From: an uncultured delta proteobacterium
Lineage (GTDB): Bacteria > Desulfobacterota > Binatia > UBA9968
DNA length: 64,000 nucleotides
Assembly (NCBI GenBank): GCA_963745835.1
Contig: CAVUZH010000016.1
Location: 64,001-128,000 of the forward strand
Direction: 5' to 3'
The notes below the pieces were generated by a model, which did no database searches, had not been told where the DNA came from, and saw only the letters and a list, made by a program, of their open reading frames with translations. The position numbers and the translations under genes were made by a program. Below, in pieces: positions 25,849 through 41,642 of the stretch. The first letter of the stretch is position 1, and each line of letters begins with the position of its first letter.

Positions 25849-25853
25849 AGTAA

Positions 25854-25930
25854 TCAGAGGTTGAAAAACTCTCTTCACGGGCTGTTCAAAAGATTTCAGA
25901 GCCGAGGCGCCCGACGTTCGATGAGCTGAG
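25854..25930 (+). repeat. Left half of MITE-like ~155-bp repeat (interrupted by IS110)
   Basis: GGCTGTTCAAAAGATTTCAGAGCCGAGGCGC...GAGCTGAG aligns with the intact copy at 41487-41569. Confidence 0.85.
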
Positions 25931-25945
25931 ACTTTCTATGAGCCC

Positions 25946-25951
25946 TGTCAA
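25946..25951 (-). promoter_or_regulatory. -35 box (TTGACA) of circle-junction promoter; pairs with -10 TATATT at 27428-27423 after excision
   Basis: Junction reads TTGACA-gggctcatagaaagtCT-TATATT, a 17-nt spacer. Confidence 0.8.
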
Positions 25952-25969
25952 GCCCCATCGATTTTATTT

Positions 25970-27195
25970 TCACGCTGCCTGGCGCAATTTCTGTCGTGCA
26001 ATGTTGGCCAAGTGGTGGGTTTCGTCATAAGGTTTATGATCTCTCCACAGCACAAAAATAATTTTCAACCACTTCGCTCCCAAAGCCCGAAGTGCTTGGG
26101 GATGGCTGTGTCCTCTGGCCCGTTGGTCTCGATAAAAGGCCTTGGCCCACTGGCTGCGGTTTATCGAGATAAAAGCAAACCAGTAGACGGCGTAGCGCAA
26201 TTGTTTGTTACAAGAAAACCGAAACTCAACAATGCGACTCTTGCCACTCGATTTGGTCACCGGGACTGCTCCCGCTTCGGCCTGAAGGTGCTTAAAGGAT
26301 TCCCATCGAGCTGGGGCATCTCCCAGCTCGGCCCAAAGGGCCGGCAGCAACGTTCCGCTTTTCCCTCCCGGCAGCTTCTCCACAAGCCTAGCGGCCGGTG
26401 TAGAGGCGAAAAAACGTTCGACCTTGTCGCTGTACTTCTCAATGCTTCGCAGCGAAGCCTCAAGCTGATCGAGCAGCACTTCGAGCAACTGCGCCTTGGC
26501 TCTGACGACGTGATCGGGAACCACAAGTTGCGGCTTTTTCAGCTCCTCCCACCGCTTGGCACTGCGTGCTTTACCAAGATGAGGATGCTGCTGGGCAAAT
26601 CGGCTCCACTGCTTACGGCTAAGCTTCGAGAGCGCCGTTGGCGTCGAATACTGCTTGAGAAAGTCTACTGCTATACGAGCCTCCAGATCCCCAAAAACCT
26701 CCACCGGTCGAGGATAGTACTCCTTGAGAGTGAACTTGAGCTGATTGAGCAAACGCGTTTTGTGACGCACCATTCTTTGCTGATCCCGGGTAAGCAGCTT
26801 AAGCTCCTGGGCCTGCTCAGAGCTTGGCCGAAGGGGCCTGAGGTGACCGTGGTCGGTTCGAAGAAAGTCCGACAGTACCCAAGCGTCAAAGGGGTCGCTC
26901 TTGGATTGGCTCATGCGAAACCGGTCCCGAGCACGATCCAAGACCTTGGGATTGACCGGATAAACCACCCCCCATGATCCAAAAGAAAATCCACAATGCG
27001 CCCGTGGGGCTTCTCGATCGCCGCCCACAGCTCCACCTGCTCAGCTCTGCTCTGATTGAGCCAATGCGCCAACTCCGCCAGCCCTTCAGGGTTCTCTTGG
27101 ACTTTCATCTCCATTACCTTTATCCCGTTCTCGTCGCCACCGTAGAGCTGGTGTACTCGGTCTGCCCAATCTACTCCCAGATAGTATCGTGGCAC
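25970..27195 (-). CDS. IS110 family transposase/bridge recombinase (DEDD_Tnp_IS110 + Transposase_20), frameshift in homopolymer ~26970
   Basis: YLGVDWA, AAIEKP, VYPVNP, KSDPFDA (DEDD), and GAVPVTKSSGK (catalytic Ser), CNKQLR, ALRALGAKW; AAGGAGG RBS. Confidence 0.92.
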
Positions 27196-27231
27196 TTTGT
27201 TGTCCTCCTTCTTTGCTTACTTTACTCCAAT

Positions 27232-27415
27232 AGCTGTGAACGGAACGTTAGCCTTATATCGGTCCTCGACGGGACAACTTTCCATAGAACTTTTGACTCC
27301 GTTCTTTTGCTGGTCGGGACAGTCTCAGCTAGATCCTCTAACGGAATCGCGTACGTAAGGTCCTCTAACCAGCAAGCTTCTTGGACGACAATGCAATATC
27401 TATCATCGAGTATGA
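27232..27415 (-). ncRNA. Putative IS110 bridge RNA (target-binding and donor-binding loops)
   Basis: Stems 27368-75/27307-14 and 27298-304/27238-44 enclose guides CGUACGC, AGCUGAG(ACU), (AUG)GAAAGU and AUAUAAG(GC), which match the flanking target and the element-end donor. The 5' and 3' ends are approximate. Confidence 0.88.
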
Positions 27416-27430
27416 CTACAGTAATATAAG

Positions 27431-27503
27431 GCGTACGCTTCAGTACGTTGAAGCGAGTCGGGCGAGCGCAACGAAGGCTATAAGTCTTTTCAACAGCCTG
27501 TCA
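27431..27503 (+). repeat. Right half of MITE-like repeat
   Basis: GCGTACGCTTCAGTACGTTGAAGCGAG...GAGCGCAACGAAGG...TCTTTTCAACAGCCTG aligns with 41569-41642. Confidence 0.85.
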
Positions 27504-27570
27504 GTGCGTTGACACTAATAGGTTTCCTAGAGTAAGCCTGAGCCAAATCGACCATCACTGTGTTCTCAGC

Positions 27571-41486: not shown

Positions 41487-41642
41487 CAGCAGGTTGATGA
41501 AAAACCCGAATTGCAGGCTGCTCAAAAAGATCTCAGAGCCGAGGCGCGCGACAAATCGACGAGCGGAGGCGTACTAAGCGAGTACGTTGACGTGAGGCGA
41601 TTGAGCGCAACGAAGGATTGAGTCTTTTTCAGCAGGCTGCTA
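41487..41642 (+). repeat. Intact MITE-like repeat with imperfect TIRs (CAGCAGGTTGATGAAAAA / TTTTTCAGCAGGCTGCTA)
   Basis: Homologous to the split copy at 25854/27503 and the inverted copy at 52032. Its right end overlaps the TAG stop of the adjacent gene. Confidence 0.85.

Follow-up and report, generated by a model that had tools for sequence, protein, structure and literature searches.

The element and its insertion site

The window analysed here is a stretch of 64,000 nt from the genome of an uncultured member of Candidatus Binatia (contig CAVUZH010000016.1). On its minus strand, between two CT cores at 27430-29 and 25930-29, lies an insertion sequence of the IS110 family that measures 1,500 bp counting one CT. 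It consists of a left end that encodes a two-loop bridge RNA, a frameshifted recombinase gene and a short right end, and it sits inside a palindromic REP-like repeat of ~125 bp (Table 1). Strings and coordinates were read on the minus strand, 27700-25700. An earlier account of the locus, made from the letters without database searches (the sequence-only reading), had given the junctions, the two stems, the four guides and two long complementarities (10/10 and 9/9) base by base, and all of these were reread correctly. At the left junction the flank CGTACGC is followed by the core and TATAT (27428-27424); at the right junction AGAAAGT is followed by the core and CAGCT.

A search of the element's own genome yielded three full copies that are 99-100% identical (in the window, on contig 3 and on contig 14), a 120-nt partial copy, and ~30 places where the match is confined to the 32 nt on the left side of the element. 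The left-flank word was present in 27 of the 30 aligned loci matching these 32 nt. After it come CT and the element at the 3 filled sites, and CT (TT in one) and then mostly CAGCTCATCG at the 24 empty sites. The sole difference between empty and filled repeat copies is the element plus one CT, the core being single in empty sites and present at both junctions of filled ones. The comparison thus defines the pre-insertion site as CGTACGC-CT-CAGCT, to which insertion adds the element and one CT. This is the target that had been proposed from the junctions, and exact empty copies of it exist in the same genome: the intact 14-mer (CGTACGCCTCAGCT) occurs 16 times, compared to 0.07 expected from composition. 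Genome-wide, 35 sites lie within one mismatch of the target and 105 within two. Three target copies are occupied, and each junction word was found three times in the genome.

We scanned one GTDB genome per species for homologs and obtained 29 loci, 17 of them full length, with 48-95% protein identity. Most reside in metagenome-assembled genomes (MAGs) of Candidatus Binatia or 'Deltaproteobacteria', and two in Verrucomicrobia; within the window's order, 20 of 123 genomes (its own, G000, included) gave a match at E <= 1e-60. All aligned homolog rows share the left terminus CT-TATATTA and the right terminus cTTGACA...ATAGAAAGT-CT, and the boundaries of the element are therefore fixed without reference to the RNA. 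The architecture is that of the IS110 group, with a left end of 233 nt, a right end of 39 nt and no target duplication beyond the shared CT; the ends, TATATTACTG... and ...CATAGAAAGT, are not inverted repeats of each other. We also considered the IS1111 group, in which a seekRNA lies in the right end. The accessible text of Durrant 2024 describes that group by a long right end, a short left end and subterminal inverted repeats of 7-17 bp. The lengths of the two ends and the position of the RNA upstream of the gene do not fit this assignment.

Bridge RNA and guide/flank covariation

The left end contains a target-binding and a donor-binding loop that are pseudo-symmetric: each presents a stem, a left guide, an inner hairpin closed by G-a-GGAY, a two-base linker, a right guide of 5 nt, AG facing the core, and handshake bases. 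The strands read are those expected of a bridge RNA, in that the left target guide (LTG) equals the target's top strand and the right target guide (RTG) is its complement. In the donor loop, the left donor guide (LDG) AUGGAAAGU is identical to the left donor ATAGAAAGT at 8 of 9 positions, the odd one permitting G-T. The right donor guide (RDG) matches the element's own circle junction at 7/7 positions, and the LDG does so at 9/9 in most homologs. The right guides are 7 nt long (5 nt plus core) and run on into the handshake bases, as had been proposed. Extended in this way, the right guide of the target loop, AGCUGAGACU, is the exact reverse complement (10/10) of the right junction AGTCTCAGCT, and that of the donor loop, AUAUAAGGC, is the exact reverse complement (9/9) of the left junction GCCTTATAT. 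The extensions are ACU, which pairs donor AGT, and GC, which pairs target GC; prior to exchange, partial pairing of the donor-loop GC with donor GT would still be possible by way of one G-T. Position 7 of the left target (LT) is C in 22 of 24 sites, consistent with the invariant G of the donor-loop handshake. By simple arithmetic, one 7-mer match in a stretch of ~230 nt is expected ~0.014 times. To find two such 7-mers, a 9-mer and a 10-mer in the appropriate loops far exceeds what chance would give, and the homolog permutations described below settle the matter.

The two-loop fold was examined on aligned left ends. RNAalifold, applied to 15 of them, recovered the architecture independently. 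To its consensus our hand-drawn structure adds the G-a-GGAC/GUCC-C helices and the inner hairpins; its 35 pairs (524 cells) are 97.3% paired, compared to 28.8-50.8% when the 3' partners were slid by 1-3 columns. Consensus and sliding control both support the two loops that the sequence-only reading had described. Both stems are also visible in the single-sequence minimum free energy structure of the left end. The fold of the whole left end is not unusually stable by itself (z -0.68; 52 of 200 shuffles at least as good), and as the single-sequence energy is not significant we relied on the alignment for the RNA structure. A search of all 4,227 Rfam families at E up to 1 gave 0 matches to the left end, and with that no independent curated model. 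Judged from the alignment, support for the scaffold consists of conservation and one-sided G-U changes and not of rich covariation.

The scaffold of the left ends is common to the homologs, and variation is confined to two short stretches, which follow the flanks. The stretch after GAGGACC repeats the 7 nt preceding the left CT. At 109 of 115 positions, or 112 with wobble (23 distinct rows), the 5 nt that follow the right CT are reverse-complementary to the 5 nt in front of the invariant AG-ACU. We compared these matches with those obtained when guides and flanks were permuted 20,000 times among loci. In a smaller set, from which the duplicates L031 and L045 were dropped before counting, RTGs matched their own flanks at 74/80 positions (16 loci; permuted mean 44.3, maximum 63) and LTGs, scored in the best of three registers, at 79/98 (14 loci; permuted mean 52.4, maximum 72). 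A larger set, which leaves out the L033/L063 locus and one duplicate of the window type, gave 100/105 for RTGs (21 loci; permuted mean 59.3, maximum 81) and 123/154 for LTGs (22 loci; permuted mean 81.4, maximum 103). In all four comparisons 0/20,000 permutations reached the own count. Related elements are not independent, and the counts were also restricted to distinct guides: 10 5-nt RTGs matched at 47/50 and 13 LTGs at 75/91 positions, and again none of 20,000 permutations reached either. The covariation of guides and flanks among homologs, which had been named as a check on the locus, is therefore present for right and left target guides alike.

These data bear on the idea that the complementarities are accidents of an AT-rich leader that encodes no functional RNA. 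The unremarkable z-score and the absence of an Rfam match would fit such an accident. All four guides nevertheless stand at the expected places of two pseudo-symmetric loops, and the guides follow the flanks across homologs; permutations and sliding control contradict chance so clearly that we consider it hardly conceivable.

The surroundings of the target suggest a different objection. The target lies near the centre of the palindromic repeat, one strand of which, in an empty copy, folds with z -5.39 (0 of 200 shuffles as stable), and a 7-bp hairpin, CGCTTCA/TGAAGCG, stands directly 5' of the LT with a 2-nt overlap. Site choice might then be set mainly by recognition of this hairpin by the protein, with RNA complementarity secondary or coincidental. 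In ISPpu10 of Pseudomonas putida, an IS110 element described as occupying many copies of one conserved intergenic repeat, the available description likewise places a stem-loop 5' of the paired target and credits it with added specificity. Relatives of the window element, too, are found in hairpin-forming repeats, as we read by hand from aligned flanks. What tells against protein recognition as the main determinant is that the 10 distinct RTGs and 13 distinct LTGs follow their own flanks to a degree that no permutation equalled; a structural gate would supplement guidance by the RNA and not supplant it. We regard hairpin recognition as the principal determinant as unlikely.

The repeat family comprises 40 scored matches in the own genome, from 153 first-look candidates. 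Its members have inverted termini of ~24 bp, and the family, the landing pad of the element, has a further copy in the window at 41515-41641 (minus strand) and occupies at least 40 other places in the genome. It would thus supply dozens of landing sites. IS621 targets a REP-type repeat as well. The relatives at L034, L039, L047, L059 and L036-L038 are inserted at the tips of other repeats that form hairpins, such as ...CCCTCGCC-CT-CTCCCAGAGGGCGAGGG..., and targeting of palindromic repeats seems, from these flanks, to be general across the clade.

Table 1. Features of the element and its flanks, with positions in the window
Feature	Position	Strand	Basis
Left half of REP-like repeat	27431..27500	-	Empty repeat copies in same genome; DNA fold of empty copy
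LT, CGTACGC, last 7 nt of left repeat half	27437-27431	-	
Left CT core	27429..27430	-	Sequence; empty/filled comparison
Non-coding left end encoding bridge RNA, 233 nt	27196..27428	-	Sequence
Putative -10 half of junction promoter, TATATT, first hexamer of left end	27428-27423	-	CTTATATTA invariant in 15/15 aligned left ends
Target-binding loop	27307..27375	-	Aligned coordinates, pairing, guide/flank covariation
Target loop, outer stem UUGCUGGU / ACCAGCAA	27375-27368 / 27314-27307	-	
Target loop, helix GaGGAC / GUCCC	27365-60 / 27320-16	-	
LTG, CGUACGC	27355-27349	-	Target loop
Target loop, inner hairpin	27347-33	-	
RTG, AGCUG+AG (AGCUGAG)	27330-27324	-	Target loop
Target-loop handshake, ACU	27323-27321	-	
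Donor-binding loop	27238..27304	-	LDG and RDG conserved with conserved element ends in all aligned homologs
Donor loop, outer stem	27304-297 / 27245-38	-	
GAACGGA / UCCGUUC of donor outer stem	27304-27298 / 27244-27238	-	
LDG, AUGGAAAGU	27285-27277	-	Donor loop
Donor loop, inner hairpin	27275-62	-	
RDG, AUAUAAG	27259-27253	-	Donor loop
Donor-loop handshake, GC	27252-27251	-	
Ribosome-binding site (RBS), AAGGAGGA	27210-27203	-	Sequence
Recombinase N-terminal fragment, 94 aa, GTG start 27195; first half of DEDD/RuvC-like domain	26911..27195	-	Open reading frame (ORF), Pfam
Frame with remaining recombinase; second half of RuvC-like domain and Tnp domain	25970..27028	-	ORF, Pfam, siblings
Right end, 39 nt	25931..25969	-	Sequence; aligned right ends
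Putative -35 half of junction promoter, TTGACA, in right end	25951-25946	-	TTGACA and ATAGAAAGT-CT in 18/18 aligned right ends
Left donor arm, AGAAAGT	25937-25931	-	Sequence
Right CT core	25929..25930	-	Sequence; empty/filled comparison
Right half of REP-like repeat	25860..25928	-	
Right target (RT), CAGCT, first 5 nt of right repeat half	25928-25924	-	
Antisense codon-complementary open frame, split by frameshift into 26012-26977 and 26974-27429	26012..27429	+	ORFs, siblings

Recombinase, genomic copies and expression

In the window copy the recombinase gene is broken near 26969-26970. Pfam found the first half of DEDD_Tnp_IS110 on one fragment and its second half together with Transposase_20 on the other. 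The break at ~26970 had been taken for a homopolymer slip, which the alignment does not bear out: relative to both sibling copies, two bases are replaced by one. The change may be biological or an assembly error. Both siblings, on contig 3 and contig 14, encode an uninterrupted recombinase of 408 aa. Within the element, 12 alignment columns distinguish the three copies, which are identical in the RNA region (27430-27185), so that the repair of the break once suggested before any assay is unneeded. The window copy is thus non-autonomous, as it cannot make its own recombinase, and could be acted on in trans by the two intact siblings.

The sibling protein matches PF01548 (E 7e-31, residues 6-162) and PF02371 (E 2e-10), and scores 148 bits against NCBIfam NF033542, 'IS110 family RNA-guided transposase', whose cutoff is 140. 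Among PDB structures its only sequence matches are ISCro4 (9t56, the best, 7e-9) and IS621 (4e-8). An AlphaFold2 model built from 11 clade sequences has a mean predicted local distance difference test score (pLDDT) of 71.8, good in the RuvC-like and helical parts and poor in the serine segment; confidence in the Tnp part is low, residues 294-335 lying below 50. In a Foldseek search with this model, ranks 1-10 were all IS621 or ISCro4 chains (E 8e-11 to 6e-10; target-normalised template modelling scores 0.49-0.57), followed by Nop5/Nop56-type proteins, TIGR-TasR and RuvC. D9, E61, D101, D104 and S317 are invariant in 11/11 clade proteins. D101 and D104 align with D102 and D105 of IS621, and S317 (in TKSSGKS) corresponds in the alignment to the serine of IS621 YESGSS, numbered S241 once a 2-residue chain offset is applied; D9 and E61 are probable DEDD residues by their motif. 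The plasmid-borne proteins closest to the sibling protein, with 33-36% identity, are IS110 transposases of ~400 aa from Mesorhizobium, Mycobacterium, Streptomyces and Variovorax. The own genome also carries four further intact IS110-family transposase genes of other subgroups, with 314-366 codons (L090, L091, L093 and L096).

Decay is visible at several places. On contig 14 of the own genome (L004, ~1500-1640) there is a remnant of a left end alone, in which the left half of the repeat (LT = TGTACGC) and CT precede the initial ~95 nt of the left end; this breaks off within the target loop and gives way to unrelated DNA. In identical variants from two MAGs (L044 and L045), ~250 nt upstream of the ORF, the left terminus CTTAT appears to run straight into the target loop's inner hairpin; neither outer stem nor LTG is present, and one TAA interrupts the ORF. 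The copy at L047 is heavily decayed, with 14 stops.

The element could accordingly be a dead fossil, its guide matches recording history only, with nothing active now; the frameshift in the window copy, the truncated remnant and the stops in homologs L047 (14) and L044 (1) would suit that. It is hard to reconcile with the two siblings, whose 408-aa ORFs are intact while differing from the window copy within those 12 columns, with the three copies, which occupy the same position in different repeat copies next to different genes, or with an intact copy, 95% identical, that another genome of the genus carries in this repeat family. We therefore think extinction very improbable. Three near-identical copies in different repeat copies and a 95%-identical one in a congeneric genome show that the family was recently active.

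The right end contains TTGACA 17 nt before the end of the right core, and a circle with one CT gives TTGACA-17-TATATT. A consensus scan of the integrated state, covering both strands of 25850-27560, found no promoter-like (sigma-70-like) site. By analogy with IS621, a promoter would be completed only on the circle, where TTGACA of the right end and TATATT of the left end would form it, and from this junction it would drive an RNA of ~180 nt with the recombinase gene behind. In the available description of IS621 the promoter is likewise split between the right and left ends, and expression of the bridge RNA from integrated loci is reported as weak, which a split promoter without a site in the integrated state fits. 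The first internal loop of the RNA would read the target CGTACGC-CT-CAGCT, and the second would likewise read the circle junction ATAGAAAGT-CT-TATAT. Once the top strands have been exchanged, the right guides' 3' extensions would pair the swapped-in strands (ACU with donor AGT, GC with target GC), and this handshake would favour the inserted product. The strand-exchange chemistry and the role of the handshake are modelled here on IS621.

Several RNA libraries contain related sequence. In Logan contigs of three RNA-library runs the summed depth is 14-462 over the left repeat half (27393-27510), compared to 5-22 over most of the element; the high values sum many repeat copies from many organisms and are no measure of expression. 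A 1,575-nt contig from an RNA library that spans 25918-27418 with 69 differences was rejected as evidence for transcription, as it shows only that a relative is in the library. Joints in run contigs that skip 1500 nt were considered as proof of excision and likewise rejected, as they are empty paralogous or orthologous repeat copies.

Taken together, fold, guide/flank covariation and enzyme family agree with the initial assignment to the IS110 family, with a bridge RNA of two loops encoded in the left end and an IS621-like pattern of guide strands. We conclude with high confidence that the element is a genuine insertion sequence of the IS110 group, moved by bridge-RNA-guided serine/DEDD recombination between its own circle and a 14-bp site. 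Some observations weigh against this conclusion, among them the single-sequence fold and the Rfam result given above. Only 4 of the 35 pairs have changed on both sides; the stems are mostly invariant, and compensatory support is thin. A few LTGs, all kept in the counts, fit their flanks poorly (L038 2/7; L042 4/7; L067 and L088 4/7). The recombinase of the window copy is frameshifted. The RNA runs were seen as contigs only, in which no start, strand or level is readable and DNA carry-over is possible. No circle junction was found in the assembly (0 exact hits, 0 with one mismatch) or in the run contigs examined, which showed no back-joint. Finally, the window LTG does not pair with the core, contrary to the strong preference of IS621 for pairing to both core strands that is described in section 8 of Durrant 2024, as far as its accessible text goes.

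As an IS110 element with its own small RNA that spells both the insertion site and its own ends, it is a further example of the mechanism described in 2024 and not a new kind. It shares with IS621 a long left and a short right end, the CT core, the absence of terminal inverted repeats, a repeat as target, target and donor loops in which the bottom strand is read by the left guides and the top strand by the right ones, handshake bases located 3' of the latter, and a recombinase of the DEDD plus serine type with, according to the model, the same fold. The rule for position 7, as given in the available account of IS621, is kept, as C of the left target (LT7) and T of the left donor (LD7) differ. 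The unpaired A in the GaGGAY motifs resembles the conserved flipped-out A of IS621 in the accessible text of Hiraizumi 2024, a resemblance only. The two systems differ in sequence (16-18% identity over the fold alignment) and in size: the protein here has 408 aa compared to 328 residues in the IS621 PDB chain, with about 75-80 extra residues between the two domains. The RTG pairs 7 contiguous positions, versus 4 in wild-type IS621; longer RTGs in some orthologues are already noted in the accessible part of Durrant 2024. The RDG is contiguous here and discontiguous in IS621, and the target-loop handshake here can pair over 3 nt.

ISCro4/IS622, the best PDB match by sequence, belongs to the same fold and family, with 16-17% identity in the Foldseek alignment and an enterobacterial host. 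Its activity in human cells has been demonstrated, according to the available report. The present element is a well-documented natural bridge-RNA system from an uncultured soil lineage, very distant from IS621 in sequence. Empty and filled sites reveal its cognate target and donor, and its 7-nt right guides are fully contiguous; it is therefore a ready-made orthologue to test and, as the sequence-only reading proposed, a candidate programmable recombinase. For annotation, the repeat family can be labelled a landing pad and the window copy a non-autonomous member of a family that is active.

Left-guide register and the antisense frame

The sequence-only reading had also stated that the left guides stop before the core. 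This holds for the window element, in which both left guides stop at position 7, a single nucleotide away from the inner hairpin, and leave out the core; it does not extend to the clade, as some relatives with the same scaffold carry LTG plus CU. In IS621 the LTG pairs positions 1-9 and the LDG positions 1-8, as stated in the accessible text of Hiraizumi 2024, and all four guide pairings include the core. Here RTG and RDG include AG opposite CT, but GA comes after the LTG and UG after the LDG.

The bases after the LTG in relatives are CU, C and another base, or neither of these. The length of the target loop is essentially constant, and the distance from LT7 to the inner hairpin varies. It is 3 nt, as in IS621, with C, U and one linker base, in L064, L040/42, L043, L067, L070, L073 and L088/89, and also in L033. 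At 2 nt, the bases are C followed by U, A or C in L032, L035, L036, L037, L059 and L078, and do not match the core in L065. It is 1 nt (G or A) in the window type, L041, L034 and L047, with L039 ambiguous. Each register includes well-matched LTGs: L064 with 7/7, L036 with 7/7 (9/9 over a longer stretch), and L041 and the window type with 7/7. The donor loop has the 1-nt geometry in all elements; the target loop of the window element, with the same distance, is therefore a geometric copy of its own donor loop. Variation of the left-guide register and the missing core pairing bear on design rules derived from IS621.

On the opposite strand, the recombinase gene is accompanied by a long open frame. 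In the siblings this is one antisense ORF of 472 aa (495 stop-free codons; L002 1607-3025, plus strand, and L003 1528-2946, minus strand), which extends from 10 nt within the right end across the entire gene and the two RNA loops to a TAA composed of the core T and the left end's first two bases. The frame is codon-complementary, and only the sense codons TTA, CTA and TCA therefore give antisense stops. In 14 genes of the clade these three make up 3 of 895 Leu and Ser codons, compared to 116 expected from long frames of the window's genome. Other codons ending in A are normal or raised (GTA 0.123 vs 0.106, ATA 0.18 vs 0.098, GGA 0.307 vs 0.192). Within the gene body TTA, CTA and TCA occur 3 times in frame, compared to 403 and 443 times in the other two frames. 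Among genome frames of at least 380 codons, 11 of 1,815 are without the three codons and the median is 8.2 per 408 codons; the four other IS110-family genes of the same genome contain 5-9 each. As the host DNA is only 54% G+C, base composition does not account for the open frame.

All 13 homolog loci examined have 437-508 stop-free antisense codons, and 21 distinct intact elements have open frames of 437-629 codons, which in about half of them continue into the right flank. The encoded sequence is less well kept: in diverged homologs the antisense protein is 38-54% identical and the sense protein 67-70% (86% vs 95% in L031), and a Pfam search with three antisense proteins at E up to 0.1 found 0 families. 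The RNA loops are read in different antisense frames in different elements. A conserved peptide antisense to the loops was considered and rejected, as the distances from loop landmarks to the gene frame are not conserved modulo 3. That one antisense frame takes in the entire circle and is closed by one TAA is true of this element (1,500 nt, 495 open codons) but was rejected as a rule, since homolog lengths are not multiples of 3 and homolog frames end elsewhere. Because the antisense protein is poorly conserved, has no Pfam match and varies in its frame over the loops, it is an open frame that seems to be preserved and not a particular protein. What would matter then is passage of ribosomes from the flank; our guesses are that it protects read-in transcripts from termination or damps sense expression.

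For antisense ORFs in IS110 elements, the only description that we found in the literature is that of 'hed' in IS900 of Mycobacterium avium subsp. paratuberculosis. According to the available text of PMC8141618, this IS110-family element of ~1.45 kb has a transposase gene of 1,200 bp, and 'hed' lacks an RBS or start codon of its own and a known function. A second ORF across the element on the complementary strand is the arrangement seen in the clade here; the host differs in its 54% G+C, and IS900 was compared by description only. If the antisense frame is translated, it would bear on an old unanswered question about IS110-family elements, and if selection for it is true, the 1997 puzzle of 'hed' would gain a statistically clean case in a genome that is not G+C-rich. 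That the clade has been selected to keep the antisense frame open and that its LTG is movable among three registers (3, 2 or 1 nt) with core pairing by the left guide dispensable are tentative proposals, which we would place slightly below an even balance.

Open antisense frames were also seen outside the clade. Three distant plasmid relatives, and a fourth of which 225 codons of frame were read, contain no TTA, CTA or TCA and have open antisense frames of 409-533 codons, a weaker signal in that they are G+C-rich.

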